DNA of 61,959 bases, filler included, from Porpidia crustulata (taxonomy: Eukaryota): NCBI GenBank assembly GCA_964255105.1. It is 6 parts of 6 records of this genome, joined end to end, with 100 filler letters (N's around TTAATTAATTAA, not from the genome) between each part and the next. Parts side by side here need not be neighbours in the genome. Positions count along the whole stretch, not along the records: positions 10,354 to 20,600 come from CAXUWE010000806.1; 5 more parts are not named here. One strand, written 5' to 3'. Positions 1 to 20,600 of this stretch are shown in pieces; position 1 is the stretch's first letter; every line of letters begins with the position of its first letter. Below the pieces are notes generated by a model, which was given only the letters and a program-made list of their open reading frames with translations, ran no database searches and was not told the DNA's origin. The translations under genes were made by a program, and so were the position numbers.

Positions 1-875
1 GTGAGCATCCTGAGGCCTACGCGCAGCCCGCGTAGCCTGTGTCCTGGGCAAGTGTCCCTAGCCTGGGACTAACATAATAGTAAATTTATCGAAATTACTA
101 ATCCGAAACAACAAATATAATTAGAACATTAAATGTTAATTCGAGTTTATAATCTGTTAACGTATCAGATCAAAAGTGAAAGCATTTATAATGATGTTGT
201 TATTAAAAAGTTATCTAAAGGATGAAACAAGAAATACAGAAAATTATCCACTAGCGTCCTCAGTCCCATGTGGCGGAGATTGTCAATTCCAACAGGAACA
301 AGTAAATTAAATCAATAAAAGCTCGTCCGAAGTAGTAGCAATGTCAAGACCACGGAAAAGAAAATGGACTTCGACTCGGAACACGATCTTGCCGTTCTTT
401 ACAGTCCTCTTGTTTATACTAGGAGGCTCGTCATCGGACCTCTAAGCCAAACACATTGACCGAAGGCGAGACGCGAGACCTAGAGCACCCGGTTTAGTCC
501 CTGAATGGCTGCCTTCACGAGAAGTAAGAGGGCGTGAGCTGCCACGGCGGCCAGCAGAGCGATTCGATTGTTCGGGCACAGATGAGGTGCGGGAAGACCT
601 GGGATTCCAAGTGCTGGATCTTCTCGCCGGCTCAGCCAAGGGTCCGTGGAACCGGGACGCCGAAGCTTGGATTGAGGCATCCGCACTGTCAGCGTGAGTA
701 AGTCTATACCTCTCACGGTCGTCTGCAAGATGTGAATCTCAGCTCCACTTGGCGTTCCTCGAGACATGACTGAGTTCAGAGCATTTTTTTGGACCCGAGT
801 CCCTAGAGGAGGGGATGCTGGAGACCCATCGGAGTCTTCCCAATAATGGAACTCCCAACCGAAGCCGCAATCAGG

Positions 876-1361
876 TCACAAAGAGCTGCTGGATCCGTAG
901 GCTAAGGGTGACGCGTGCGAGGACTGATAATGAGACGAAGACAATCCCGAAATTCCGTAGTGCGAGGAGGATGATATTGTCAGGCCATGACGAGCGGATG
1001 ACGGGCTCGAGTGCTCAAAGCGCCGAGATGAGATGGCGGATCGAGACTGTCGAGAGGACGAAGACCGAAATAAACTCTGACGATCCTTAGAGGCCAGCCG
1101 GCGCAATGACTCCGAAGTGGACATCCCTGATCGGCTTCGAAGCACAGGATGAAGTGCTGGCTCGCTTTTTGGGACGACCATCAAAGTCCTGCAAATAGGA
1201 CATTCATTGCTCTGTTGAAGCCATAATCTCAGACATTTTTCGTCCACGATGTGCAGGCAGGGAAGACGAAGGGGTTTCTCGTGATTGGCGTCGTAGTCCT
1301 CATGGCATATTATACACTGGTGTTCATGGGGGTTTGTGACCGTCGAGAAGCGACTTGCCAT
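876..1361 (-). CDS. RING-finger protein with Ser/Arg-rich tail (putative E3 ligase; possibly truncated)
   Basis: CIICHEDY...LPCLHIVDEKC...W...ECPICR follows RING spacing with Asp at ligand position 5, then low-complexity Ser-rich sequence; TGA at 876-878. Confidence 0.6.
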   Translation of the reverse strand: MASRFSTVTNPHEHQCIICHEDYDANHEKPLRLPCLHIVDEKCLRLWLQQSNECPICRTLMVVPKSEPALHPVLRSRSGMSTSESLRRLASKDRQSLFRSSSSRQSRSAISSRRFEHSSPSSARHGLTISSSSHYGISGLSSSHYQSSHASPLAYGSSSSL

Positions 1362-1761
1362 GCTATACCTTCCGCGAAATGCTCAACTTGAGACAATGCA
1401 CGTTCTTCACTCACCGTTAAATATGTAATCCTTGCACGCTGGCAGATGATACGACCTTCTCAAGTTCGTATCATTAGCAGCTGGATTGCGCTTCCAGAAC
1501 GAGACAATAAGCTGCTGAAGCATTGCCAGTGACAGGACTCGAAGGCTAGTTATATAGTCGTCGTTGGCATGGCGAATAGACCTCACAATTGCAGTCTTTT
1601 TCTTCTTTGTGCGAAACTCCTACCGGTAGCGGCCAATCCGTGCACAAAGGTCCTGAACCGCGTTAGAGCGAACCTAGGGGCAATGATTGTGGGCCTGGGC
1701 GCAGCACGAAAATCAATTACAGATTACTGCTGGGCTTGGGAGCGAATTCTCCGCAGAATAT

Positions 1762-2012
1762 CTACAACGTATCCGGGGAATCAATTGGTAGCACGTGGCG
1801 TTTGGCTATCTATACCCAATTTGACATCGTTTATGATCGGTATATCTACCCTAAAATCTCGTATGTTTTCCCTCTGAATCAATAACGATCTAAATAGATA
1901 AGCCGAGAAGATAAATAGATAGGTGAATAATTTAAAACAATTCATCAAATGCTTGAGCACGTATTTGAGTAATTCATCAAACAGATGAAAATTTATTGAA
2001 TTAGGGACCGAG
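1762..2012. mobile_element. Degenerate MITE copy, inverted relative to the 2013-2329 element
   Basis: 1762-1890 (ctacaacgtatccggggaatcaattggtagcacgtggcgtttggctat...ctgaatcaataacg) aligns by eye with the reverse complement of about 2205-2330; 1950-2010 aligns with the reverse complement of about 2093-2155. Confidence 0.75.
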
Positions 2013-2329
2013 TACTACGGTATCCGGGGAATCAATTGTTAGTACACTCGGTTAGCCCCCCTGCTAGCGTCTGATTTTCAATGTCAGAATATCCGGCCCC
2101 TAATTCAGCAAATTTTCACCTATTCGATGAATCACTCAATTATCTGCTCAAGCATCTGCTCAAGCATCTGCTCAAGCACTTGATACTATACATGCTCGTT
2201 GTCAGACCGTTATTGATTCAAAAGGAGAACATACTAGATATTAGGATAGATATACTGGCATAAAACGATATCAAATCGGGTATAGCCAAAAGCCACCTAC
2301 TAACAATTATTCCCCCGGATACCGTAGTA
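2013..2329. mobile_element. Non-autonomous TIR element (MITE), Tc1/mariner-like, TA-flanked
   Basis: Left end TACTACGGTATCCGGGGAATCAATTGTTAGTA; right end reverse complement TACTACGGTATCCGGGGGAATAATTGTTAGTA; near-perfect TIR of about 30 bp, TA at both ends, about 315 bp long, no transposase ORF. Confidence 0.85.
2142..2177. repeat. 12-bp tandem repeat (ATCTGCTCAAGC)x3 inside the MITE
   Basis: Three exact copies read directly at 2142-2153, 2154-2165 and 2166-2177. Confidence 0.95.
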
Positions 2330-2536
2330 GGCAACAGTCTAGGCAGCCATCAAAATATTCTGAAAATTACCGATCCATACCGTAAGATTCGTTTTGCCAT
2401 TGCAGGCGCTAGAAATAAACAGTGGGAAGCCCTCGTAAAACAGCGGCGAGACCATCGCCGCGTCTCACAAGCCCATTAACCTTAAATTTCACCACTCAAG
2501 ACAAAAGATCGAACTATTCCTTAAGATATCCCGATC

Positions 2537-2892
2537 ATGCCCCTTGTAGTCCCCGGCGTCATGACTGCCAGCGACGGAAACCAGCAGGACAGCTGGATGA
2601 ACAAGCTTGCGGGAAAGAAGATTACCGAATCAGCCAGTGATGCCACCGTATAGCCTCCAAAATAAATCTCGCTGGGTTCAGTTGACGCTAATGATTGTAC
2701 AGAGCTTCTCTAGGCAGGATCTGCCGAAAAATCATCGAATTATTGAGCCTGACTCCACGATGACTACGGATCACGTACCAGATCGGTAAACGAGACACGT
2801 ACGTCGGAATATAGAACAGAGGCTGACCCTGTACCAGCTTGAATGTTCATGTCGGCGAGGACGGGATTGTCAAGCATGTGGATTTCAAGTGA
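2537..2892 (+). CDS. Small conserved fungal protein, peptidase inhibitor I78-like (about 82 aa, 3 exons)
   Basis: Exons 2537-2647, 2703-2785 and 2838-2892 with GT-AG introns and CTAAT/CTGAC branch sites give MPLVVPGVMTASDGNQQDSWMNKLAGKKITESASDATSFSRQDLPKNHRIIEPDSTMTTDHVPDRLNVHVGEDGIVKHVDFK; the T-x-D-x-x-P-D-R-L-N-V motif is typical of I78. Confidence 0.85.
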
Positions 2893-3074
2893 AACATTGA
2901 ACGTTTGGGTGGTATTTGACGAATTTATGAAGCCCACGGAATGCACTTTCTAGTTTGTCTTATTCTTACGTTTCTCGTCATGTCATACTTTTGTAAGCAG
3001 AGCCATTATGTAGCGTACTCCAGAATCCTCTATAGGGTGACTAATCCTGCAACTTCCTCTCGGGTGACACTTAT

Positions 3075-6000
3075 TTAGATTCCAAAATCTTCTCCGACTG
3101 CATCTAGTACCGTCTTCAACGCTCTCGTCATGTCTGCGTCTCTTTGTGCGGCGCTCAAAGCTTTCATTATGAATGGATAAAGTCGATGTAAATGGTTTTT
3201 GGTGCTTTCGCTAATGCCTGGCATTGGGGGTATAGCCTTTGGCTCAGGCTCCAGTTCCACAATCTTTTGCAAGATGCACAGCATCTCTTTCTTCTGAGAT
3301 AACGGCTGCGGCATACGCCCACGCAGTGGCTGGTCAAGCGCATATGCCTTGAGTGTGATACCTACGCGAAGAATCAGATAAGGAGCGGCGGCTTGAGCCA
3401 GTCTAATACGTTCAGGGGAACTATCGTGGACGGCGACAAGGTCGAAAAGCTCGTCAAGCAGCACATAAGCGAGCTTTGATCTTGGGCTAGGGGGCAGATC
3501 TTGGACACGGCCGATATGTTTGCTCCGCAGACCTTCAAGTGGTTCATGCCCAGGCCTGGGGAGATCATCAGGGTGGGGCTCGTGTATGACGGAATGCGTG
3601 AAGATAGATTTGCTGTACGTACGGCATACGGAATCCGAAAGCAACTGGTTTCCCAGATTACCGGTGAGAAGGTTTCGAATGGTAGAGAACGCGGAGGTGT
3701 CAAACTCCTGATCCTTTTTTATTTTTGAGTCGTCAAGATTCATCGACGATGAGAATTTTGCACTTATGATACCATCGTTGATCCTGATTACTTCGTTCAT
3801 GAACTCCGAATAGCCGGATTCCATATTTACTGGTGGCTTGGTAACGGGTATGAATGTTTGTAAAATGGCCACTGCGGTTGTGGTAGCCTTCTCCCATGTC
3901 GAGGGTGGCTTGCCTTCCGTATGCCACTGATACTTTAGGTGCAATGGCACAGACAGGGCTTGTAATGCTCTTGATAGCAGTCTAGGCGTTTCCGTCCCGG
4001 CCGGACTTACATGGCCTACAACGTAGGATTGAAGCGAGTCCATGGCGGATTTTGAAAGAGCAATATAGGTCGGACCTGCTCTTCGATCTTGGACTTCGAC
4101 ATCAAAAGCTAGAGTCACCAACTCGGCGGCATTATCGATCAATTTTGTCATCACCCCAGGTATGCCAGGGGGGATCGTCTTCAGGCTCTCGATAGCATAC
4201 TTTTGCACAGGTATCATGCGATCAGTGTCGCCATCGTACGTCGCCGTGCCTGCGCTAACAATAGTCGCACGGAGCGCTTCGATGACTCTTCCAGCACGTT
4301 CGCATGATAAATCCGAGCCGACAAGGCGAAGCAACTGCTTAAGACAGTCTAGATAAACCACGAGGGTGCCCTGACTTCTGTTGTTTCCATCAGGAGAATC
4401 GGTATGAGCACCAGGATTACCGTCCTGCCATACCTGCCAAGCTTTGTCGAATGAGCTCGCTCCCATCGTCTCCATATCTTTGGTTTCTACAAGCATCCTT
4501 GTCAATCCAGAAAACACAACGCGACTCACACTCAAAACTTGTCGTCCTAAAAGCTCATTGAGGTAGTCTAATAGGCCCGTCCACATCTCTGGAAAATCGG
4601 CATTAACTCTTATGGTGTCCAAGAATTGAGCAAAGATCTTGGTAAGTCCTTCGGTGAGTATAATCGTAGTCTCGTTCCATTCAGCCATAACCTGTTCGCG
4701 TATGGTGGTGTTTTCTATGCCTCGAGCATCAAGATAGTTTCTTTGGTTTGCGGAAAGTAATAGAGCAAAGACTACGCTATAGCAGACTCGCCACGCAGAG
4801 GCACTTACTTGGTCACCGCTGGCGTCAAAGATTCTAAATAAGGTGTGTAAGGCGCCTTAAGAAACTTTAGTATGGATTCCTTCTTGAATAATAATTACCT
4901 ACTATGCCGTACTTCCGTCCGTCTGTCAGTCGTCACATGCATCAAGTGAACAAGCAAACAGAGCCATAAAGCTGGTAATGGTACATCACGATCATGTGCG
5001 TATATGAGATCCATAAAGTCGATCCTTGATTGACATTCCATGATACGACTATCGAATGTAATGCTTTCACTGTCACGCTGGAGAAAGTCCGATATATTTC
5101 GGAAGAACGTCGTTGTCTGAATTGTCATGAAGTAAGTAAACATTCGTTTCCAACAATGCGTGTCGGATTACTTGCTGCGAGTGAGATATTGAGATCTTCT
5201 TCTTGGGTGCTAAACGAGTAAAGAGTCTCTAATAAAACTGGTAAGTAAGAGTGTGGGACAGCATTTAGAAAGTCGGAACATATAAGTTGCAATGATGCAT
5301 ACGAGGATTTGACGAGCCTTGGGGACAGCATTCGGAGTGCGACGGTATTTGGTGGCTGGGGTTTCCCAGATGATGTTGTTATGTGGAAAACACTCGTCAT
5401 TATAGCAAAAATGGAGTCCCAGCCATGACGAAGAGAGTATCCGCACTGTTCTAGGACCGCATGGAGCGTCTCTAGTGCCAATCTGAGGATTTCAACTTCG
5501 CAAGATTGCTGGCCTTTAGGAACTTGCTGATTTCCATCATCGCGAATTGAATTAATCTCTTTCAGTAAAGCATCTAAGCATCTCTTTCGAGTAGCATCCT
5601 TATCTTCTACAGATGTAGACTCCTGCGCAACAGCTGTACTTGAAACAAGAGTGTTCAACGTGCTCGCGGCTTGGATCCGAATATCGGAAGTGGTCTTGAG
5701 TGAGCTAAGTAGAATGACCAAAACGGAGACTATAAGGTCCCAACCGGTTTCAAAGGTCTCTTCTTGTAATAGCCGAATCAAATTACACCGAATGAGATTA
5801 CCGAGCTTCCTAAGAACAAACTCATTGGCTCTCTCATTGACAGTCCCTTCTGTCGATTCCCCAATTCTAGAAGCTACTTTGTGTTTATCTTGCGATGCAA
5901 AGTGAGGGGAATTTATGTGGTCCATGGGTGACTCCTTCGGAAGGTCCACACTGCGCAGTAGGCCGCATAGACAATTTATCATGTCCATAAAAGCCTTGTT

Positions 6001-8484
6001 CGAAAGGTCCGCAGTACTCTCAAACATTCTAGATGCGGCTGTCTCTGCAGCAGTAATCTCGACTCCGACTTCACCTGGGCTGTTTACAATCCCACTAGCG
6101 CTCCGGTCTTCTGATGACTGCCTTGAGTGCTTGCCAGTGGTTTGTTGACGCATTGTACCAGAGTGAGTCAATATCAGATCTGCTTGCTGCAGTATCTCTA
6201 GTATCATTAACCACGAGTCTCCCAGTACTGGTCCCAAGGCTATACCAAGATTGAGTAAAGCCCTCAAGCAGAGCAGATTTCGAGTGTTCAATCTGAGGGA
6301 ACCGCGGTCGACGGACTGTCTGACATGGTCTGTTGTTACACTTTGCATTGGATTAGACTCTGGATCACTTTCTTCCTCTTCCCCATTCCAACGCCCAACA
6401 TCTCCACCATATCCAGAAGCCGCAAAATGGTTATCCATGTTAGGTGTATTGAGACTTACTGGGGGTACGGCATGCTTCCCAAGGGTCGTAAGGAAAGCAT
6501 CTCGAGGTGTCATCATGTCCAGTAACCCAGCAACATGAGTAAACTTTTGGAACGACCGGATGAGCGCATGATAGTAATCAGAGTCAAGAGTCGCGTTCAA
6601 GAACGTTGAGCATCCCGCCAATACAGCTGGCCAGCAATTTTCAACTATATGCCCCGAGGTACGGATCTGGCTGTAGAGAACATGGTCTTCCAAAGATAGT
6701 GGGTTGACCGGCACCTTGCGTGTCCGGTAGGATCGATTCCGGGAAAGTCGTTTTTCCTCACTAATCGTAGGGGTCGTATTAGTAGTGTCAGTAGCAACGC
6801 CTGAGCTTACCTCTTGGCTTTGAGATACACGGGTCTTCCGTTTTGGCTTCACCTCGCTGGGTGTCGTGAAGGGCAGAAGAAAACGCGCAAGACCTTCAGA
6901 AAATGTATTGAAGCAAGTAAGAGTGAGTCCGTAGATGTACGCAGCGGGAAACGATGGAGCTTCCAATTTGTCAAGCTGGTCGATGCACGGGATCCTGATC
7001 GTACTCGACTGGGTACTGATGCCGGGCGGGTTGGGTCCAATCACGTTGACGGCAGCTCCGATGCTGCTCATGATTCCAGTATCTGTTATGATTTTTCGCA
7101 CATTTGAGTCATCTAAAGGCGTCGATGTGGACGATGCAAGTGTAGATTGTTGCCCCATACCAACGGCAATCGGATTCTCGGAGGCGAGACGTACAAGAGC
7201 CGCCAAATGATCCCGAAGAATGTTTCTTTTGCCTTCTTGCTCATCGAAGTGAGAGTAAATACTCCTGATAAGCGCCGGTTCGGAGTGAAGCCCACGGAAC
7301 ATCTCTAGACATAACGCCCGCTTCCATACAACTGCAGCATCCGGATCCAACATGTGGTTGACAAGACTCAAGGCAACCTCACATTCAGGCGCGAGAGCAA
7401 AGAGAAAGCGCCGGACTATGACTTGCAAGAGCCTTGTCGCCCGTACAGTAGCGGGAAAACTTGCTTTTTCAGACATGATCTTGACTACGAGTGGCATTAA
7501 GCCAGTACGAAGGACGTGAAGTTGCTCTGGACGGGCCATGACAATTTCGTCATGATTGACAAGTATAGACTCTACGAGCTCAAGGCCGAAATTTTGAGAT
7601 AATGACGCCCCTTTAAACGTCTTTGAATGCTGGCCTTCTGTCAGAAGGCACAGGTCCGTTGAGACCTATACGAAGTTATCAACACTTAGCTTGCATTGAG
7701 GAACTAGTGTGAACTTACATAGTAAGCATCTAATGCGGCACCAGATATGTGTATAGTATCATCGGCTGTTGGTACCTCTACGGCAAGTTCGTCTTCAGAA
7801 TTCCTACCTCCACCATCTTCTTTCGCAATTTTTTCAAAGCTAGATAAGACTAGCTGCTGGAGTGTAGCTGCAGCAGTATTGGATACTACTGCTGTCTTAA
7901 TGCTATGTAGTAAGAAGCATACTTGGAAAGCGGCTACTAATAGCTCTCCTGTGATGAACTCTGCAAAATTTTGCAATAGCGACGGAAGCGCTTGAAGTAC
8001 TTTCAATTGAATATCGAGGGCTATGAAGCATCAGTGCAAAACTCTCAAGCTTGCGCCGTAAGTGTTATACCTAGCAATGAGCATTCTCGGAAGGCCTCTA
8101 GGGTAGCTCCAAGAGCCTCAATTGGAAGGCCTTTGGTGACAATAAGTCGCTGAAGGCAAATGATTGCACTGCCGGCCAATTTTGGATTACGCGTATGGCA
8201 GGCGAGTAAAAATGGTTGCACAAAATAAGGGCGACTTTTCAAATCTCTTTCAAGGTCAGCTAGAAGCACAAGCCAGGAAGTCTGACACAAACCTGCCGAA
8301 AGCTGAAGCTCAGAAGTGTGAGGAAGAGCTTTGAGATCGTTTATGGACTTGTCAGCAGCCTTTGAATTTGTTAGGGAAGTCACATCAAAGTCTTAAATTG
8401 ACGCACATTTCTCAAATCCGAGTTTTTCCTCTTAGAATCTTGAATCAGAGCTGACAGCTCGGAGTTGAGCAGCTGAGCTGTCAT
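3075..8484 (-). CDS. MON2: Mon2 (Sec7-family-related endosomal/Golgi scaffold), multi-exon
   Basis: N-terminus MTAQLLNSELSALIQDSKRKNSDLRN; DCB-like exon (PFLLACHTRNPKLAGSAIICLQRL); motifs LLDMMTPRDAFLTTLGKHAVP, LNTRNLLCLRALLNLGIALGP and LQLICSDFL; ORF blocks 8045-8383, 7704-8006, 5125-7539, 4895-5143 and 3075-4688. Confidence 0.93.
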
Positions 8485-8856
8485 GACTGGACTTGGGATT
8501 ACATTCAAGTCTTTGTAATGCCAACTTCATTCTCAAACATGCCCGTCTCGGAAAGGATTCTGTAGCCCATTTGGCACTTGAATCCCGAGGAATCTTCTTT
8601 GATTTGAACTAGACAACGGTGTTCTGATAGATTAGGCTCCAAAGTACCCCGATCGTTTACTTACTTTATCTTACGATATGTTTGTATTATATCTTTAGCG
8701 GTAAATTAAAGTGGGTTGAAGTCGGGTGGGCTGCAGAAACCTCACCATGACGCTGATTTATGAGCACCGAAATTTGGACTTCTGCACTTTACCAACTGAG
8801 GACCGTCTACCTCGTTCCTTTAAGCCCGTCTCTTATAGCTGAGGTCTATCGTGATC

Positions 8857-9500
8857 ATGGGAGCCAAGATTCCGAGGAATTTTCGGCTGCTTGAAGAGCT
8901 TGAGAAAGGCGAAAAAGGACTCGGTGCCGGTAGATTGCAAAGGCTCTCATTGGAGACGATCCAATTACTAAATGAGTACAAATAGAGGCTTGTTCATACG
9001 GCCTCTCTGATGGAGATGATCTGCTGATGTCCAACTGGAATGGGACAATATTGGGACCCCCACATGTGAGATTCTTTCCAGCTCATGGCTGGAGAGATGC
9101 CTGCTTACAGTCTGTTCCATACTCACAGAGTGCACACGAAAATCGTATCTACAGCCTAAATATCCATTGCGGGGAAGAATATCCCGATAAACCTCCAGAA
9201 GTGAAATTTGTTTCGAAGATCAATCTGCCGTGTGTAGACCCAAGACATGGAAAGGTTAGGAACAAATATATCGTGATTATTCCTTGGCTCATGGCAAGAT
9301 CAGGTCGATCCAACAAGACTTCCATGCCTTTTCCAGTGGAAACGAGAGAACACTATGGAGACTATCCTGATCGAGCTTCGAAGGTTGCAATCTTCTCTCC
9401 AGATTCCGAACTTCGTCATTGACATGTATATCTCAGATACATGGCTCTCCCCCAACATAAGAAGCTTCCACAGCCGGCCGAGGGGACTACGTTCTCCTAA
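8857..9500 (+). CDS. MMS2: Ubiquitin-conjugating enzyme variant Mms2 (UEV), 5 exons
   Basis: Spliced product [31 protein letters not shown]...MSNWNGTILGPPHSAHENRIYSLNIHCGEEYPDKPP...INLPCVD...METILIELRRYMALPQHKKLPQPAEGTTFS; TAA at 9498-9500. Confidence 0.95.
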
Positions 9501-9794
9501 TCGGTCAAGGTAATAAAGTCGTAAGATCTGAACTTATGGATAGCGAATTTCACCTTGATGTACGCATTGCTGGCGTCTACGGGGATGTGAATGGCAGCTC
9601 TGGAGCGGATATGGGTTATTGATATTACTACAGTAGCTTTGCCTTAAGAGATACAATTCTCTCTGCAAATTGCCCATGCTAATATTGTTGCTTGTGATAT
9701 CCGATATCATCACGTGACCCGCGCGCCTGTTCAGCTTAAAAAGGTAAACTTAACTTCCGCCAAACACGCCGATTTACCGACACATGAGCGTCGA

Positions 9795-10253
9795 ATGCCA
9801 AGGTGGATCACCCTAAATAAATCAGGAGTGCATCGAGCAGCATGTAAGTATATTGTCAAAGAGTATACAATATTCTCTAATAGAGGCTCGATTCAGGCTT
9901 CGCTCTCTACCGTGCGCTCCTTCGGCGGGCCTACCGGCTGCCCGTGTTTGAAGAGCCACGATCGCTTTTGACAAAGCGGATTAGAAAGACCTTCCAAAAG
10001 AATGCAAACCTCCAGGGTCCTTCGGCCATTGTCACCGCACTGCGATCGGGCTACTCGGTGAGCAAGAAAGAATTCCGCATATCGGCGCCCGAAGTACTAA
10101 CCAAACTCTAAGACCCTACAAACACTCCAGACCGGACCACCCGGCTGGCAAGATGCCTTGACCTCCGCCTTGCGCCCCACGACCAAATCCTCGATACCTC
10201 CCATACTGCATTCAACCCCAATCCCTCCAATCCCATCAACCAAACTCGTGAAC
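9795..10253 (+). CDS. LYR-motif (Complex1_LYR-like) protein, 3' end lost at contig end
   Basis: ATG at 9795, introns GTAAGT...CAG and GTGAGC...AAG; product MPRWITLNKSGVHRAACFALYRALLRRAYRLP...RIRKTFQKNANL; LYRALLR motif plus downstream R-x-x-F. Confidence 0.7.
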
Positions 10254-10353: not shown

Positions 10354-10747
10354 GGGCTGGGGCAAATCATCGTCTATTATTCTACGGGCGACACATGCCA
10401 CAGTTGTTCTCAGCATACTACCACACTACTACGTGACCCGGTCAAGCTGGACATGACCCGTCTGCGACCTGCAAAACACTGAAAAGACGACCGTGGATCC
10501 TGGTCCTCGTCCTAGATACCCCGCAGAGCTGTGACATCTAATGGCGTCCGGCAAGTGGGCCTCTGGCCAGAACTCTTTGCAGGTCAACTGTCGATACGAC
10601 CAATTGGCCTCTGATCTTCTCTGATCCTGACACATCACATATACGCAGTCAAAGTTTTCTAAACTCTTTAAACATTACCATCAAATGGTTGTGGGAGCTA
10701 TTCATACGATCTGACGTCTCCGTGTAGCCAAGTGCTCTCCTGCTATC

Positions 10748-11873
10748 ATGGGTCTCACGATTCGCGACCACAACAATATGCCAGTCACGCACGGCCGGCA
10801 AAGACTCGCAACAGGCGTCCGGCTGCATTACTACACCGCAGGCTCAGGACCAGCATTGATGCTCCAACATGGCGTACGACGACCCGTCCTCCTCTCATGG
10901 CAAAGACGCCCCTGACTAAGACATCCGCGTCGCAGATCCCAAAGACGAGCTACTACTGGCGCAAAGTGCTACCGTTCTTGACTCCAAAGTACACGGTGGT
11001 AGCCGCAGATATGCGCGGCATCGGGGACTCGACCCACCCCGACGGTGGCTACGACATGGCCACCGTAGCCGACGACCTCGCCGAACTGATGACCCACCTC
11101 GGCCACGACAAGTTCCACATGTGCGGCGAAGATTGGGGCGCTGCCGCGGCATATCAGGTGGCGGCGCGGTACCCGGAGCGAGTGATGAGCTTGGTGTTTC
11201 AGGAGATGCTGTTGCCGGGCTTCGGCTTGGAGGAGTGGGCGCAATTCAATCCAGATCGGCCGGAGACGCATCTGTGGCATGTTAGGTGGGATACTTCCGG
11301 GGAGGGCCTCGATACGGTGGGCAGCGACTGACGGAGACGGCAAAGCTTCTATTATGTGCGCGACGTTCCGGAGCTGTTGATAACAGGCCGGGAGAGGGAG
11401 TACTTTACTTGGTACGGATGTTCCGTGCTTGGTCTTGGTCTTGCCAGACCCGGTGCTGACGGTTTTTTCCCTTCAGGTTCATCAAGAACGAAGCCTACAT
11501 CCCCACCGGCATCGACGACGATGCCATTGACGAATACGTGAGCAAGTACTCCCAACCGGGTGGACTGAGAAGCATGTTTAACATCTGTAAGAGGCCCTCG
11601 TCTTCGAACGACTACTTTGGCTAATAGTTCTTCGCAAAAGATCGAGCAACGGAGTCAAATGTCAAGCAAAATAGGGAGGCCGCCAAGAAGGCCCTGGGCA
11701 TGCCGGTTCTCGCGGTCGGCAGCGAGGCGTTCATTGGTAAAGATGTTGAGAAACAAATGGAGAAGGTGGCGGGCACGGTGGAGTATCAGGAACTTAAGTT
11801 TGGCCATCAGCTGGCCGAGGAGTGCCCGGAGCAATTGGCAAATGTCTATCTGAATTTCCTCAATGCGCTTTGA
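10748..11873 (+). CDS. Alpha/beta-fold hydrolase, epoxide hydrolase/haloacetate dehalogenase class (5 exons)
   Basis: Spliced product MGLTIRDHNNMPVTHGRQRLATGVRLHYYTAGSGPALMLQHG-IPKTSYYWRKV...DMRGIGDS...GEDWGAAAAY...GHQLAEECPEQLANVYLNFLNAL; HG-x-P oxyanion motif, Asp nucleophile motif G-E-D-W-G, C-terminal catalytic His. Confidence 0.9.
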
Positions 11874-11969
11874 GGAAAATGTGGTTTATGCTCGTACTTT
11901 CACAAACAGATAGTCAAGAGAGATACAACATTGGAGTTTTTCAGCAGACATCATGCGCCGATAGACGGA

Positions 11970-13419
11970 TCACCATTTATTGTCAAACACTTTCCCATCG
12001 ACATGATTCACAAGCTCCTTGACCGGTTCGAGTTCATCACTTCCCCCACCGAACAGCATCCCCTGGCGCATGACGTGACGGTAGTTCCGGCCGGGCGACA
12101 CCTTCCCCAGCACATAGGGCCGACGATTCTCGGCGCGCGATGGCACGGGGATGGACCGGCCGACAATGGCTTCCATGCCCTGCCACGCGAACGTGATGGC
12201 TTCCTTGGCGCCGCCGGGGATTCCCGCCTCATCGAGCATGTATATCCGCGTCCGCGGGTAACTCGCCTGAATGAAGTCGACGATGTTGGGGTTGTGGGCT
12301 CCGCCGCCGCACATGAATATCTCGTCGAGGTCTTGCGACGGAGCGTAGCGCTTGTAGTGGTCAACGATGGCCTGAGCGGTGACTCGAGTGAGGGTTGCGA
12401 CGACGTCGTCCGGAGAAAGGCCGTTTCTCTCGGCTTTCTCGATCAGATTGTGCGCCAACGAGTCCCGAAAGACTTCTCGGCCAGTGGTCTTGGGGGGGTC
12501 GAGATGGAAGTAGGGATGCTCTAACATCTCGTCGACGAGAGCTTGATCCACATTTCCGCGCTTGCCCATCTCGCCGTCCTTGTCGTACTCTCGTTTTCCA
12601 TTGGAGAAATGCCGCACGGCCGCATCGATGAAAACGTTTCCCGGACCAGTATCGAAGTCGTAGCATTGATCGATGCCACCTCGGTTGTCTGGTGGGATGA
12701 AGCAGACGTTGGCGATACCCCCGATGTTTTGGCAAGCCCGAAGCTTGGTCGGATGATGTAGGGTAAGGGCGTCGAAGAATGCGATCAGGGGAGCGCCTTG
12801 ACGACCGGCAGCTTGATCACTGATCCGGAAATCCGTGACGGTCGTGATGCCCGTTCGAGCGGCGATGATCGAGCCCTCGGCCATTGTCAATGCGCTCTTA
12901 ATGTGCCCTGGCTCTGGCATCGACAGCAGCCAGATGGTTTGACCGTGTGATCCGATAGCATCGATGGTCGACATGTGGATTCCATATCGTTCCGTAAACT
13001 CCACAACCGCATTCGCAAATGTCTCTCCAAATGAGACGTTCACCTCCGACAGCTCTTCTGGCGTCGTGCGATTGTGGAGGATCATCTTCATCACGCGCTT
13101 TTTAATTATCTCTTCTAACGGTATTTCGCCATACTAAAGATAGATATTAGAACAAGAAGAGAGGACTAGCTCGAGGCTGCTCACTTTGAGCAACTCGAAA
13201 TGCATAGGAGAGCTGGCACTCTCTTGTCGAAAATGGCACAATGCACAATCAACGCCATCCTGTCTCGTAATCGAATGTCAGCAGGACACGATACCGTATT
13301 TCGCAGCAATGTCCGACCATAGAAGTACCACTGTTCAAACCCAATACCGTCAAGTCTAGAGGCGCGCCTGAAGCTCCATTGACGAGTCCGTTGACAAGTT
13401 CATTAACTTTGGAACCCAT
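11970..13419 (-). CDS. lgk: Levoglucosan kinase (anhydro-N-acetylmuramic acid kinase AnmK family), about 446 aa, 3 exons
   Basis: Exons 13419-13318, 13259-13185 and 13133-11970 give ...[22 protein letters not shown]...[13 protein letters not shown]...[21 protein letters not shown]...[14 protein letters not shown]...[13 protein letters not shown]...[12 protein letters not shown]...CGGGAHNP...[10 protein letters not shown]; long stretches match the Lipomyces starkeyi LGK sequence as I recall it. Confidence 0.92.
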
Positions 13420-14143
13420 GTTTGTGGATGAGACTCGATTTCAGCAAGGAGAAATGTTTTTAAGTGATCATGAGATCTTGACAGATTGGACTACTGGACT
13501 GAGACATTAGTCAGAGCGAGTTTAGAGAGCAAGAGAATAGAAGTCTCAAGGCTCACCGTGGCAATAAGTCAAGCGTCACGGTAGCCACTACAAAGGCGGC
13601 TTCTTGTCAACTTGGGCAGGGCAGCTCAGCTTCGGCCCACGGCCACCAGTCGAGTTGGAAGATTCATCGCTCGGGACAATCGGAGAGACGTGTTGGGCTA
13701 ATGATCCGCAGCAGCGATGCCATAGAGATGTCAAAGGCCATATTCGGCAGAAAGGGGTTTCATTCGTTGAATGCACATCCAGACAGGACACGCGGGGCAT
13801 GGTGGACCAGCCTGATTGGGATGCGATCCTCACCGATAATAGGTTAAACGGCTAAACTCCTCAACGCCTAAACGCTTGTTAAGCTTCGACGAATACGCCA
13901 CATTAATACGGTTCATCGTTTCTAACTTCGGACTAGGGAAGCATCTTTTATTCCTCTCAATCAGTAGATATTCCAGCGATGGTATATATAATTGGGATCC
14001 TAATCAGATGTCCAGGTCGAGCCACAAATCACATACCATTGACGAGACTGAAGCTAATCACACGGCATCTCTCGGACTTTCTGTATCTGCTCTGAGCTTC
14101 AACTCGAGCCGCGTGACTGGTAGTAGATAGATTGAGTATCGGA
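13420..14143. promoter_or_regulatory. Divergent promoter shared by LGK and the sugar porter
   Basis: 724-bp head-to-head intergenic; TATATATAA at 13983-13991, SYGGRG (CreA-type) GCGGGG at 13792-13797, CGGCTAAA at 13849-13856, CGG-N6-CGG at 13672-13683; short motifs, individually weak. Confidence 0.5.
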
Positions 14144-16126
14144 ATGGCGGTCATGACATGGTGGAGGAAGCTCTCGCCGCAACAGCTGAATGTCGCCGTC
14201 CAAGCCTTCTCCTTGATAGCCATCTTTTTCGAAGGCTACGACCAGGGGGTCATGGGAGGCGTCAATGCCACTCCTGACTACGTGCAAGAGGTGGGCATTG
14301 GCCTCCCAGACGGAACGGTAACTTCCACCATCCACCAAGGCGGGATCGTGAGCATTGTGAGTGAGACCTTTCCAGGCTATGAGCCGCAGGCGAAGCTATC
14401 ACTCACTGGCTTGGCAGTACTACCTTGGATGTATTGTTGGCGCTTTCATTGGGGGTTGGTTGGCCGATAAAATTGGTCGCATCAATGGACTTGTAATTGG
14501 AGCCTGTTTTGCGCTCGTCGGCGGCGCGCTACAAGCGGCCACGCAAAGCTCGTCCTTCATTTTGGTCGCACGAGTGGTGACTGGATTGGGTACCGGAGGT
14601 ACGTACCCATCACCGAATATAGGCAGATTTACTCTGACGTGCTGGTCTGTACAAAGCTCTGACGGGTATCACACCGGTCTTGGTGTCAGAAATGTCGACT
14701 GCGGACCATCGCGGTGGGTTCTTGGGGTATGTGTTCATCGCCAACTGTAAGATGCAGCCTTTCCCTCATGCCCATAGCCGGTCATTGATCCCAGTGGCAG
14801 ATCTGGGTATCTCGATTGCCTACTGGCTGTCCTTTGGATTGTCTTACGTCGACAATGGCTATTCAGCTGTTCGATGGCGTTTCTTGTTGGCATTCCAATG
14901 CTTCCCAGCGCTGCTGCTGCTTGCTGGCGTGAGACTGCTCCCGGACTCGCCGCGGTATTACGCGTCCGTAGGCAGATACGACGAAGCTAGAGAAGTGCTT
15001 GAACATCTCCGAGGAAATGGACCCGAAGTTGAAAAGGAGTTTGCCGAAATCTGTGTGGTTGCCAAAGATAGCAAGCCCGCGTCACCCTTGCAATTTGCAA
15101 AGGTCCTTGCGGGTCGAGGAAGCGGCACCGCACCACATCTCGGGCGGCGAGCCTGGCTTTCTCTCTGGCTTCAGATCATGGCTTCGTGGTCTGGCATTAC
15201 GGTCAGTCAGAGACCTCGTCCGATAGCGATCGGAATTCATGTAGGCTTACTTGAAGAGATCAGGCTGTCACGGCGTACTCTCCTGTGCTTTTGAGTCAGG
15301 CAGGATACAGCAAAACCAAGCAGAATGGGCTCGCTGGTGGTCTCAACACCGTTGGCATCATCGGGACCATCATCAGCGCTCAGATTGTGGACCGACTAGG
15401 ACGTAGGAAGTGTTTGATTGGAGGTTCTCTGGGTCTCTTCTCCGTCAACTTGATAGGTCTGCTTCGCACTGATTTCCACTATCCGAGAAGCTGTTATTGG
15501 ACTGACTATGGTCAGCTGCTGCGTTATATGAGAAGTCTCGCGCCGATCCCACGGCTTCGACACACATTGCGCCCGCTGCTGTCACCATGCTGTTCCTCTT
15601 CAATCTGATATATGCCGCCACCTGGGGTACTGTAGCCTTCCTGCTTCCCACGGAAATCTTCCCGTCCGAGATGAGAGCGCAGGGCAACGGCTTCGGCATC
15701 ACTGGTTGGGCCATCGGTGTGGGCTGGACAGTCCTGGTGAATCCCATCATGTTTGGTTCCATCAAGAGCCGGACGTATTTCCTATTTGCCGCCTTGAATC
15801 TGATCTGGGTGCCTATTGTGTTTTTCTTCTATCCAGAAACGTAAGGGTTCCCCGCAGAAGGGCTTGAACAAAATTGCTGACCATGTCTCAATAGCAAGGA
15901 CCGTTCGTTGGAGTCCATTGATGCCCTCTTCTCTTCGAACTGTCCCTTCTATACCAAGATGGAGGAGTCGTATCGGCAGCGAAGCGATGTCCTTGGTAGC
16001 AGAAAGCTGTCGGTGGCCGAAGCTGTTGACGCCGCAAGAAGCTCTTCGGTCGGTAGAGCCGGACATCGAAGGCCCGTCGAAGATGGAGAGAAGCTTTACG
16101 ATTCTTCACACAATTCCGCCGCCTGA
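14144..16126 (+). CDS. MFS sugar porter (Sugar_tr family), multi-exon
   Basis: Motifs FEGYDQGVMGG, ADKIGRINGL, ARVVTGLGTG, WRFLLAFQ, LPDSPRY, VDRLGRRKCL, PTEIFPSEMRAQGNG and FFYPETKDRSLESID across exons separated by GT-AG introns. Confidence 0.93.
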
Positions 16127-16230
16127 AATGTAATCAATCAGACGGGCTAACAAAATGCTTAATTGTTGTGATTATGGTGGAGCGCCACCAGCTGTCGAGT
16201 TCTTTATACATATCTACTGCTGCTGCGAAG

Positions 16231-18411
16231 TCACTGAGCGAATTGGTTGAACTCAGATGACCACGGCCAGTCGGCGAGAAGTTCCATGGGTAGTTCGAAA
16301 TGTACATTCCCATCTTGAATATGACCAGGCTCCGTCTCAGGAATAGATTGGTGGCCCTGAAGCACAGAGTTGGCACTGTAGTCACCATAACCAGAGACGA
16401 ATTGCTGGGACGAATTATCAGAAACCTTCTGAGGCTGGCCCTCTGTCCGCATGTACTGATCAATGCCGAAAATGATTGACCTCAATCGATCACCGGTTCC
16501 CGTCGAATGACTTAGTCCCACTTCGAGAGTAGCAAGTAGATCGGCCATGTCTAAGCTAGGCATGACTTCCCGTCAGTACGTGAACAGGCAGCAAAACGGG
16601 GGTACGAACAGGACCGCCCGGATCTGAAGGTAGGATGGCTCGGTCAGACGGCCTTCGATGGCCGAGCCAAGAACAGATCCGATCCCAGCAAGGTGATGCA
16701 ACTGCCGCCAAGATTAGCGCATGTTCTCCATGTACCTGACTATTGCGCGAGCTCTTTGACTTACTAGAGGACTTGATATTGCTCGCAGATACCGGACAGG
16801 TACTGTGGCAATGTTGGCCAACAATTCGCTAGCAAGTAAGCATTTCTGCTCTACTGATGAATGTCCCGTCGTGAATAGGACCATGCGGACGAGCTAAGGG
16901 TAGATTTAGGAGGTGCCTCGCCAATGGTATCACATCAAAGACCATACCTGGAGAGTAGCCGTGATATTTGCGGCTTGGAAGTTGAATCGGTCCTCGGATG
17001 CATCAGCCTCAACCTCGGGAGTTTCCTTGAAGCGTTGGGGCAACTGGTTGTAGAGCGCCATGACATGGTCTAGAACCTTTGCTTGTGAAGGGTTGTCACT
17101 CGTGAATAAGTCAGTCACGGTGGGTAGCGAGGCGCTGCGGCCTTTCAGTCGATGATATTGATCCATGACATGCTCGAGGATCCGATAGAGGTCAGTGGTG
17201 AAATTCCACCCTCGTAGCCAGCTGGATGATGATCCGTTCAACCTAGAGACCAGTGACGGGAGGTCATTTGACACTTGCGGGGCTATGGTTGTGGAGATGT
17301 GGATGCCAGTGTCGGAGAACCATTCATCCTCAATCTCACTCGGGTAAGACACTCTTGCTTGAGCCTCCCGCCAATGAATGATGCCGCCCCAGACGATAGT
17401 GGAGTAGACGTCCAACGTGTACATGGACCAGAACTAGCCATAGCAACCTGTCAGTACATCGTGGGTACTATAAAGGGGTACAGCGGACCAGTCTCCGGCG
17501 TTCCTCCATCTCAACGAGACCCGTCCCTTCAGGCCAAGCCGACTCGTCGTACAGTCGCTCGCCCGAAACAAGGGCGTGATAGATGCCCATGTTCAGCTGC
17601 ATGGCATCGATTCGTCCACTCTGAATCGAGAACAGCGCGAGCAGGGCGAACGTGCGCATGTAGTCTATACCTCGGGCGCTGCTAAGATCCTTGGGCACAG
17701 CGCTTTGCGCGGCAGCGTAGAAATCCTCAGAGGACCAGTAGTTCTGTGTACCTGGCACCCCAGCTGATGATGCAGCAGCGCCATCTCGGACGCGAGCTAA
17801 AGCCAAAGCACATATCACCATCACACAAGCCAAGAGCCCCTGGTTCGTAAGATATTCGCGGTTGGTGATTCGACGACGTAAGCTTGGACGATGGAAGAAA
17901 GGGAAACTACACGTTGCATGAGCGACATGTACGCAAGATACGGGGAAAATTGTAGGCAGATTTACATGGGATAGACAATGTCAAAGTAGACTTCTACCAG
18001 GGCACCAATTGTCTCCTGGTCTGGCATAGACTCTGCCCGCCAATGGCTGCTTGCACTGTGAGCGGGGCTCTCCGACTCGACGGCTGAGTGTACGCCATTG
18101 TGAGGCTGGAAACTGGCACTTTCAAGATTGCTGTGTCGTCGAGCTTCCCGTGTTTCTTGCTCTTCGTCATCTGCCAGGTCGGGTGAGCCCAGGGTAAGGT
18201 GGGTTGTGGCAGAAGGACCAGCTCTTCTCTTGGGTTTAAGTCCCCTCTTTTGGACTGGCCGTATATAGGTGCATTGAAGATCGAAGTCGATACACTTCTG
18301 GCATCTGGACGTGTCCTCGGAGCTTTGTTGGCATCGCGAACTTCTGCTATGGCAAAAGTCACAGGCACGCGAAACTCGTTGTAGCTTGCGAAGTCGAGGG
18401 TCTGAAGGCAT
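16231..18411 (-). CDS. Zn(II)2Cys6 binuclear-cluster transcription factor with fungal TF middle homology region (about 6 exons)
   Basis: ACDFCHSRSSRCQQSSEDTSRCQKCIDFDLQC fits C-x2-C-x6-C-x9-C-x2-C-x6-C; downstream YFDIVYP-FPFFHRP and EERRRL-FWSMYTLD. Confidence 0.92.
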
Positions 18412-18636: not shown

Positions 18637-19622
18637 TTCGGGCTGGCGACAGTCATCAGTACGAGTAGATAATCTCTTCCTCAACATTCAACTTCGCTGA
18701 GGTACGAGGTCTACTTCTCTCTTGTCATCCGTCATTAAAGAATCTGTGCTCTACTGGCGTAAAAGTACTGTGATCTGTTGAATCACGCCGATTGATAGAG
18801 TACGCCAGATCAATTGGCTTGACGCGAAAGCTTAGTTTTTCATCATCGCTACTTTTCTTTCACAAGCACACCGGAAGATATCTTGCTGAAGTAAGAAATA
18901 CGAACGGTATGCTTCAGCTAAGAGAAAGAGCCCTTAAGCGCAATACTCCACTTCTGTCTTTGTCAACATGTCGAGTTACAACTGTATTTGTGCACGACAA
19001 TGTTAAATCTAGAGAACTCCACGTCGGTCGAAGGACATATTGAGAACTCAGCTTCATTACGTTGATTATATCTCATTTGAAGACATAAAGACTATGCAGT
19101 CTCACACATCTTGCATATCTCGATTTTGAATAGACTTTACTATACTCCCTTCTACGTTTACCCTCTATACTACAGGCACAAGGCTTGAGCGCCTTTGCCT
19201 TGTACTCGTCTCTCTTATATCCCCTCCGTATTTCTATGGCATCCTGGAAGACCCTGCTTTTCTCGACATTCAGTTTGCCTTGTTTTCAGAGCATGCAGAC
19301 GACTGTGCCGCAGGGTCGCTATGGGCCCGCCTCTTTCATATTCAGAGCAATGCCTAGGATTACAGAAATAGTATCTATCGACTGATAATGTATGCTGTGT
19401 TGTCGATTTTGCACGCACTCGATTCTGCGAAGGATTCGATGAAACACTTGCGCAAGGCACATAGGTGGCGCAGCCTAGGCAGAAGCACTGCAAAACTCCG
19501 AGACTGCTATATACTACAATATCACGTTCCCCATATCAATTGTGTAACCTTGATTCTTTCAAGACTGATTCTTTTGAATTTGATCTCTGATACATGTGCG
19601 GTTGCTGTTGTCCGAATTGATC

Positions 19623-20141
19623 ATGAAGTTTCTCCAGGCATACGTTGCTTTAAGCGCCACGGTGCTGCCATCAATCGTGTTTGCGCGCCTCGATCCCCAA
19701 GAGCTTGGACTTCTTACAATGGTTACTAACTACACATTCCATTCTATTTGCAATGACTTCAACAATCCAGATCTCTTTTTCGACGAAGCGGTACCTCAAC
19801 CTATCCCCACGCCCTCATATCTACAACGAATTCTAAAGCACCGGAAATTCTAGGCATTATATCAATACATTATCGACTACAGCTCAGATCTTTACTCCTA
19901 TTATATAGCCGAGAGTGATGATGGTACCGATGGTCTTTGTAGTTCCGTTGAAGTTTCTACTATTGATTTGATGCAAGCTCCGAGAACTTCGAGTCCTACG
20001 CTGATACGAACAATCCTAGGCAAGACACCCCCCGACTTCGTATCTCAACAAACCGTCGAAGATCGTCGTCGCAGTGTCGATTGCAGAGACTTTGAACGCC
20101 AAGTGCGAAGTGTACGTCTTACTGCCTGTTCCGACCGCTAG
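19623..20141 (+). CDS. Possible small secreted orphan protein or gene relic
   Basis: MKFLQAYVALSATVLPSIVFA resembles a signal peptide; a putative intron at 19791-19853 keeps the frame open to a TAG at about 20141; no family recognised. Confidence 0.3.
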
Positions 20142-20600
20142 ATTGTCCAAGGCATATTCCAACACTAACACAACGCCCGTCTCACAGTTCTCAGAGAGCT
20201 TCAAGGTATCGAACCCGACCATGATCCAAACACGTATGATGAAGCTCATAGCGAAAACTTTAGAACATGACCTACGCAATCTCGGAAAAGGTCAGATACC
20301 AGCCGCAATAATCATCGATCGTACTAACGATAAAACAAGTGCTACCGCCAATGCCAACCGACTGGCTATGTCTGGAATGCAGCATACCAGCTACAGCGAA
20401 CGTACGAACAAAGCTACTCGGGCGTGAGTTCACTCTCTGTATACTGCATAACGAAGACCGTGAATAAGTTCCACGTTCTTGTCCGAATCTGGGGTTCACC
20501 TGCATCTGCGTCAAGTCCATGTTTTTTTACTATACGGCTTCTCTCATCACTCTCTCCATCCCCTTCACTCGCCTCCCCAAACCCACTCCCTTCCTTCCCT

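Follow-up and report, generated by a model that had tools for sequence, protein, structure and literature searches.

Within a stretch of Porpidia crustulata DNA of 61,959 nucleotides (assembly GCA_964255105.1; the whole stretch is referred to as the window), four genes at positions 10748–18411 raise the question of which sugar they serve, and of what a hydrolase does beside a kinase, a sugar porter and a Zn2Cys6 regulator. The window joins six contigs of about 10 kb each by N-linkers, and the cluster lies wholly on the contig at 10354–20600 (CAXUWE010000806.1). A preliminary description proposed a self-regulated module for uptake and catabolism of levoglucosan (1,6-anhydro-beta-D-glucopyranose), named 1,6-anhydro-N-acetylmuramic acid (anhMurNAc) as an alternative substrate, and left unexplained the hydrolase, which is the most informative gene of the cluster. 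A regulon for levoglucosan uptake and catabolism, extended by an accessory feeder branch, is in our view a likely explanation overall. The core regulon is highly probable, a role of the hydrolase in feeding the levoglucosan pathway is favoured with less assurance, and its assignment to epoxide dianhydro-sugars specifically is tentative.

Kinase

The kinase gene (446 aa, three exons on the minus strand, 13419–13318, 13259–13185 and 13133–11970) encodes an AnmK domain (Pfam PF03702, E = 7e-81). Its main exon scores 659 bits against the Lipomyces levoglucosan kinase (LGK), 4yh5, and 170 bits against the best bacterial AnmK, in support of its earlier identification as a levoglucosan kinase; the activity predicted from this similarity is of the levoglucosan-kinase type. 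LGK positions D26, G189, D212, N217 and E362, which we take to be catalytic and sugar-site residues, are kept as D35, G198, D220, N225 and E370. When the 387-aa main exon alone was scored, it fell below all 14 NCBIfam AnmK cut-offs (best 332 vs 387).

The best 120 homologues are 75–95% identical, and the named ones are all fungal, from ascomycetes and basidiomycetes. The closest of these comes from a Chaenotheca gracillima assembly, and its 90% identity suggests a related lineage. A Rhodotorula toruloides enzyme is 77% identical; an “AnmK” of that species, possibly a different sequence, is reported to have given the best levoglucosan kinase activity in yeast (PMC9476349).

Conservation of the gene trio in fungi

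In metagenome contigs, 122 kinase loci were confirmed, and the best 80 of these were analysed. A divergent gene of the porter 1 family stands beside the kinase in 39 of the 80, and in 34 of the 41 loci with at least 1.5 kb of upstream sequence, while the regulator is present in 38/80. Porter and regulator both accompany the kinase in 12 of the 17 loci having 5 kb on each side. After dereplication at 88% kinase identity, the porter occurs in 14 of 17 informative groups and all three genes in 11 of 32 groups. The recurrent co-localization that was looked for is thus confirmed: kinase, divergent porter and Zn2Cys6 gene form a recurrent trio in other fungi, and by these counts their grouping goes beyond chance.

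In named genomes, kinase and porter accessions are consecutive in all four that were pre-selected (Leptodontidium, Amorphotheca, Lophiostoma and Glonium), and the locus tags are consecutive in Cadophora and Recurvomyces. Kinase and regulator are fused in one Aspergillus turcosus gene model. Clustering of 3,320 flanking open reading frames (ORFs), with 150 of 265 filtered ORFs scanned, disclosed no further kinase neighbour recurring across clades.

Several loci show other arrangements. The kinase is alone in L025, L026 and L040. In L018, L019 and L072, the cluster is followed directly downstream by a gene for a GH2 beta-mannosidase, probably as local synteny. A larger kinase cluster (L037:11269-20902, also L038 and L062) holds the regulator (35%), a Gfo/Idh/MocA oxidoreductase, a short-chain dehydrogenase, a GMC oxidoreductase and a porter retaining the glutamines of transmembrane helix 7 (TM7), with the promoter repeat described below before the kinase. 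In outline it looks like a fungal version of the bacterial 3-keto route; its oxidoreductase gave no match to the levoglucosan dehydrogenase model. In L031, L042 and L044, the porter divergent from the kinase is nearer to porter 2 (see below) than to porter 1, and L042 and L044 are without the repeat.

Pocket of the first porter

Porter 1 (544 aa, seven exons within 14144–16126, plus strand) matches Sugar_tr (PF00083) above the gathering score in four exon frames. Aligned to GlcP through a 78% identical homologue, its pocket residues F158, N161, A289, S290, T295 and F401 correspond to GlcP Q137, I140, Q250, Q251, N256 and W357, among which Q137, Q250, Q251, N256 and W357 are presumably sugar-site residues. 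The pocket departs from the hexose-type site, characterized by a glutamine in TM5, Gln-Gln..Asn in TM7 and a tryptophan in TM10. By residue spacing via GlcP, not by direct alignment, the same positions are Gal2 Q215, I218, Q341, Q342, N347 and W455. Alanine at the Gal2 Q341 position, together with the TM7 pattern, was found in all 112 scorable homologues (120 examined), and phenylalanine at the W455 position in 99 of 101. Gal2 Q341A and W455A are each reported to give about tenfold more levoglucosan consumption, the double mutant being below either (PMC9476349). Judged by these residues, porter 1 is a candidate levoglucosan transporter, and its pocket would favour levoglucosan over anhMurNAc as the substrate of the module.

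The natural substrate might instead be a different sugar, i.e. anhMurNAc or anhydro-GlcNAc of bacterial walls, mannosan, galactosan, cellobiosan or an unknown biological anhydrosugar, with levoglucosan as a surrogate. We consider this improbable, as the kinase is far closer to LGK than to AnmK, and as no GlcNAc-phosphate deacetylase, MurNAc etherase or beta-glucosidase was present among the 150 flanking ORFs scanned, of 265 listed. For anhMurNAc, no positive support was obtained.

Promoter repeat and regulator

The regulator gene (631 aa, six exons on the minus strand, 18411–17966, 17906–17489, 17433–16948, 16893–16765, 16701–16610 and 16555–16231) encodes Zn_clus and Fungal_trans domains. PF00172 scores 21.7 bits (cut-off 21), and PF04082 is matched in two exon frames, each slightly below its cut-off. 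The six-cysteine cluster is present in all 14 distinct alignment rows listed; no named family was found for the protein in the Atlas.

Start codons of the kinase and porter 1 are 724 bp apart and enclose a bidirectional promoter (13420–14143). A matrix search in 19 non-redundant kinase-porter promoters revealed a direct repeat with an 8-bp period, which a gapped-trimer count had failed to detect. In the window it extends over 13832–13879, with the unit WCGSYTA plus one base. The matrix, built without the window's clade, reached a likelihood of 101, against 41–46 in four shuffles (seeded from two sequences, not three). Its two best sites in the window are 13840 and 13864, among 123,888 positions. 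In all four of the window's closest relatives (L001–L004), the two best site clusters are the promoter between kinase and porter 1 and that between the hydrolase and a second porter (porter 2), which places hydrolase and porter 2 in the regulon. Leave-one-out analysis put 16 of 19 promoter groups above all 30 shuffles. Twelve of 19 further kinase promoters score at least 15; many of them are related to loci used in training, unlike the L037 group. Another matrix match (14.6 bits) at window positions 29979–29994 lies inside a Smi1/Knr4 frame and is probably due to chance.

The 8-bp repeat is a candidate binding site of the cluster's Zn2Cys6 protein. It is absent before the regulator itself, since the promoters of 34 regulator genes gave a best score of only 10.0, and autoregulation through this site was rejected. 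The self-regulation proposed in the preliminary description therefore does not extend to autoregulation.

It is also conceivable, if hardly probable, that the repeat is read by the pentose regulators XlnR and AraR, the adjacent Zn2Cys6 gene being a co-inherited passenger or acting elsewhere. Both bind CGGNTAAW (PMC8180590), one such site exists in the window's promoter, and the repeat is retained in L006 and L061, with no regulator gene inside the locus. Against this, repeat units carry CGC about as often as CGG (21 vs 20), and strict CGGNTAAW occurs in 6 of 19 promoters, including that of the window. Furthermore, the regulator stays adjacent to the kinase in four different relative positions, and lone kinases without a regulator score low (11.4, 11.4 and 5.6). 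The cluster's own Zn2Cys6 protein remains our preferred candidate binder. In addition, CCCCAGA, which we take to fit the CreA repressor site, was found in 11 of 19 promoters against 1.3 expected; the window's promoter has a single SYGGRG.

Hydrolase

For the product of the hydrolase gene (294 aa, five exons on the plus strand, 10748–10873, 10936–11285, 11346–11411, 11477–11586 and 11641–11873; Pfam Abhydrolase_1), sequence and fold both identify Cif-like epoxide hydrolases as the closest proteins of solved structure. A model of a 76% identical Penicillium homologue (mean pLDDT 88.5) gives TM-scores of 0.82–0.86 to these enzymes. The triad D108, E132 and H273 aligns with Cif D129, E153 and H297, and the ring-opening pair H157 and Y218 with Cif H177 and Y239, while the H-G-x-P oxyanion loop is at H41–P44. 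The His/Tyr pair is kept in 10 of 11 fungal and in all 87 bacterial rows. Based on these residues and the fold, the protein is a predicted Cif-type alpha/beta epoxide hydrolase.

Another conceivable role is the release of levoglucosan from acylated or halogenated forms by an esterase or dehalogenase of the same fold, and fluoroacetate dehalogenases are among the structural matches. We regard such an activity as very improbable in view of the aspartate nucleophile combined with the His/Tyr ring-opening pair. Fluoroacetate dehalogenases have two arginines after the nucleophile and a His-Trp-Tyr halide pocket. Both arginines are missing here, and W109, A112 and V158 replace the expected residues (W109 and A112 at the post-nucleophile positions), unlike in a fluoroacetate dehalogenase.

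Second porter and the hydrolase branch in fungi

The hydrolase start lies 394 bp from the end of the contig, which truncates the cluster on the hydrolase side and leaves the hydrolase promoter (10354–10747) incomplete. In the relatives L001–L004, this promoter extends to a further copy of the repeat and to porter 2, which is divergent from the hydrolase in all four. Flanks of L001 are unlike those of L002 and L004, indicating that the gene block survived rearrangement. In sequencing run X1, which contains 99% of the window's sampled words and may be the run from which the window derives, a porter 2 contig has its end facing the hydrolase promoter, and no contig bridging hydrolase and porter 2 was found in that run; in run X9, one contig joins the kinase, the hydrolase and the start of porter 2. 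From the relatives and these contigs, the window's cluster probably has five genes, the fifth being porter 2 past the contig end, with both porters intact. Porter 2 is 41–43% identical to porter 1, and its TM7 differs from that of porter 1, which fits a different substrate.

The hydrolase is patchy in fungi. Accession look-ups found hydrolase and kinase together in other named fungi only in Rasamsonia, where they are unlinked. No kinase accession of the same assembly was found for the hydrolases of Penicillium lagena, P. decumbens, Cladophialophora, Exophiala, Cyphellophora, Saitoella, Elasticomyces and a Tremellales record. One Exophiala bonariae model (P0247) joins the hydrolase to proline dehydrogenase, likely as mis-joined neighbours.

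Bacterial relatives of the hydrolase

A scan of bacterial genomes confirmed 251 hydrolase loci, 78 of which were analysed. Their hydrolases show 50–62% identity, and fungal hydrolases form one clade (support 96) among them in a quick, unrooted tree that does not show the direction of transfer. A sugar ABC importer is present in 43/78 loci. In 18/78, a levoglucosan dehydrogenase gene lies no more than 6 kb from the hydrolase; 13 of these 18 genes exceed the NF052479 cut-off, the other 5 being truncated at the edge of the locus. One bacterial dehydrogenase matches PDB 6A3F (E = 1e-191). Within transporter-dehydrogenase operons, the hydrolase is on the same strand.

Outside a long-branch clade, the dehydrogenase was detected in 36 of 57 genomes (18 + 4 + 14), and no more than 10 kb away in 29 of 57. 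Genomes with both genes span Actinomycetota, Bacillota and Pseudomonadota. As a background, 400 genomes drawn at random from a single actinobacterial order were scored (four candidates per genome), and 6 of them contain the dehydrogenase. None of 16 tested genomes of the long-branch (Streptomyces) clade has it, five others being outside the test.

Eleven of the 78 loci carry two binding-protein genes, and in 8 of the 11 the one before the hydrolase belongs to its own clade, which may be seen as a bacterial parallel to fungal porter 2. This context of the hydrolase, along with the pocket of porter 1, supports levoglucosan as the substrate, as initially proposed. It also argues further against another natural sugar, as the bacterial partner passes a curated levoglucosan-dehydrogenase model and no AnmK gene was found in any of the 78 loci.

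Some bacterial loci are distinct. L104, L119, L121 and L125 combine the hydrolase with an LgdB-like TIM-barrel gene and sugar ABC genes in genomes without levoglucosan dehydrogenase. They have a GMC oxidoreductase instead, and L119 and L121 a mycofactocin-type short-chain dehydrogenase. The GMC oxidoreductase is a possible alternative 3-oxidation step; pyranose oxidase has been tested on levoglucosan (PMC8056934). In L106, L108, L113 and L094, from Christensenella and Gleimia, the hydrolase occurs with levoglucosan dehydrogenase. These are host-associated bacteria, and such loci suggest a dietary or non-fire source of the substrate. Two hydrolase paralogues per locus were found in L096, L111, L112, L115, L117 and L139; the pairs in Pseudonocardia and Actinomycetospora fall in two distant hydrolase clades.

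Proposed pathway and alternatives

In the proposed core, porter 1 would import levoglucosan, and the kinase would open its 1,6-bridge and phosphorylate it to glucose-6-phosphate. The Zn2Cys6 protein would switch on both genes from the tandem 8-bp sites in their common promoter, its own gene being outside the control of these sites; the inducer would presumably be levoglucosan. In the accessory branch of the window's lineage, porter 2 and the hydrolase would be expressed from a second promoter with the same sites, and the hydrolase would convert a second, related small molecule after its import into the kinase substrate, most simply levoglucosan. Levoglucosan alone is known to be used by both the fungal kinase and the bacterial dehydrogenase (PMC9476349; PMC7676230). 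Recruitment of the hydrolase to both the kinase and the dehydrogenase route, each with an extra uptake component, is most simply explained if it makes levoglucosan.

As a best guess, the hydrolase may act on 1,6:2,3-dianhydro-mannopyranose or 1,6:3,4-dianhydro-galactopyranose. Trans-diaxial opening is usual for epoxides on the 1,6-anhydro skeleton (PMC4901990). For the manno-2,3- and galacto-3,4-epoxides it would lead to the gluco product, although the enzyme need not take this course. 2,3-Anhydro-mannosan is listed at 0.5–4.6% of peak area in liquid smokes (PMC3951573). A broader proposal, which we put forward as a speculative one, is that in fungi and bacteria an importer and a sugar-epoxide hydrolase turn dianhydro-hexoses of smoke into levoglucosan, that the fungal gene is of bacterial derivation and became wired into the kinase regulon, and that the locus holds the first native fungal levoglucosan transporter, regulator and regulatory site.

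A number of observations weigh against this interpretation. On the side of the core, 3 of 17 long kinase loci lack the divergent porter, 2 of these 3 also the regulator, and there is overlap between the repeat unit and the XlnR/AraR site CGGNTAAW. In 4/4 closest relatives, deletions have disrupted porter 1 while the kinase is retained, so porter 1 is dispensable there. On the side of the hydrolase, it stands beside the kinase in 4 of the 49 fungal loci that had room for it, all in one clade (L001–L004), and two Rasamsonia assemblies have hydrolase and kinase on different contigs. In bacteria, no dehydrogenase passes the cut-off in 21 of 57 genomes, and the long-branch clade without sugar genes, mostly Streptomyces and mostly beside a TetR gene, accounts for 21 of 78 loci. 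All 6 background genomes that have the dehydrogenase lack the hydrolase, which makes the latter an accessory and not a core step. Counts of related genomes are not independent. Isomers of the formula of 2,3-anhydro-mannosan are easily confused, and the compound in liquid smokes was assigned by a spectral library match of quality 86–93 (PMC3951573).

The deletions in porter 1 (L001:8391-9074, L002:8133-9004, L003:1-574 and L004:8183-8987) leave porter 2, hydrolase and kinase in place, and show three patterns, one of them common to L002 and L003.

Part of this evidence would also suit a hydrolase that detoxifies smoke epoxides, co-induced by levoglucosan within an otherwise valid core regulon, and giving a product outside the kinase pathway. 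Small xenobiotic, lipid or polyketide epoxides are the substrates of its closest relatives of solved structure, the derived 21-locus clade is found mostly beside TetR genes and without sugar genes, and in Rasamsonia the gene is unlinked from the kinase. A detoxifier, however, needs no importer, and the hydrolase is paired with one in both kingdoms, in the form of porter 2 or of the separate binding-protein clade; moreover, it lies on the same strand inside transporter-dehydrogenase operons. We therefore consider detoxification unlikely, and prefer a hydrolase that feeds the levoglucosan pathway.

Organization of the locus and neighbouring sequences

Gene models are based on sequence and homology. 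All four genes have GT..AG introns, open frames and a single terminal stop each, and these intact spliced models bear out the four-gene layout described previously, with convergent stop-to-stop gaps of 96 bp and 104 bp. The proportion of G and C at third codon positions (GC3) is 0.56–0.71 in the cluster and 0.42–0.56 in 11 long ORFs elsewhere in the window; either a foreign origin or high expression would agree with this difference, which has been given no weight as evidence. Short frames without a Pfam match at 19580–20430 resemble a small or decayed secreted-protein gene. The other five contigs (1–10253 and 20701–61959), which are not necessarily neighbours of the cluster, contain ordinary housekeeping genes: Mon2, a ubiquitin-conjugating-like gene, Mmm1, Smi1/Knr4, a propeller of the Rse1/DDB1/CPSF1 type, IF2/eIF5B, a KH protein, CENP-K, a PXA-PX protein and a DDHD lipase.

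Significance and comparison with known systems

Among the records listed from the open literature on levoglucosan kinase and dehydrogenase, fungal transporters and regulators, and epoxide hydrolases, titles and abstract openings contained no such cluster or link to a hydrolase. The locus is real and conserved, and apparently undescribed in print, combining a known architecture with a hydrolase branch that crosses kingdoms. New here are the promoter repeat, the pairing of porter 2 with the hydrolase, the bacterial context of the hydrolase and the pocket match of porter 1.

Levoglucosan predominates among the sugars of wood smoke and of fast pyrolysis. Biomass burning is estimated to yield about 90 million tonnes of anhydrosugars per year (PMC7676230), and uptake is described as a bottleneck for engineered yeast, with better transporters an open challenge (PMC9476349). 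The locus offers a candidate native levoglucosan transporter, regulator and inducible promoter element. Its hydrolase connects levoglucosan pathways of two kingdoms that are otherwise unrelated, and from it a further substrate and reaction are predicted. Should the enzyme be a hydrolase of sugar epoxides, it would imply a wider biological fate of smoke carbon than is known and provide a catalyst for upgrading pyrolysis oil.

Among known systems, the levoglucosan kinase of Lipomyces starkeyi (PDB 4YH5, 4ZLU, 5BSB) is matched over its full length (E = 2e-197). In the literature covered it is described as a single enzyme, with no mention of an associated transporter, regulator, promoter element or hydrolase. 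Porter 1 is similar to the engineered levoglucosan carriers Gal2 Q341A and Gal2 W455A (PMC9476349), since its residue at the Q341 position is small and that at the W455 position is not tryptophan, but it represents a natural subfamily with further changes at the Q215, I218, Q342 and N347 positions. The hydrolase shares the fold, the Asp/His/Glu triad and the His/Tyr ring-opening pair with Cif, Burkholderia Cfl1/Cfl2, CorEH and Alp1U, from which it is set apart by 31–35% identity, no obvious signal peptide, a sugar-catabolic context and the family-specific residues K45, E107, E141 and E186.

The bacterial lgdA-lgdB1-lgdB2/B3-lgdC genes with their ABC importer (PMC7676230, PMC10066097) concern the same substrate and likewise cluster importer, enzymes and regulator, but as described there they use redox and elimination chemistry in place of the kinase of the fungal cluster. 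In the accessible text of these two papers, neither names an epoxide or alpha/beta hydrolase, although figures or network files of PMC10066097 may show one; by our survey, a minority of bacterial levoglucosan operons carry the family of the fungal hydrolase. Finally, the fungal enzyme-porter-Zn2Cys6 sugar clusters of the MAL type have the same divergent enzyme/porter promoter and adjacent pathway-specific regulator. The present cluster differs from them by a kinase instead of a glycosidase, another porter subfamily, a direct repeat with an 8-bp period, and a second porter-hydrolase pair.

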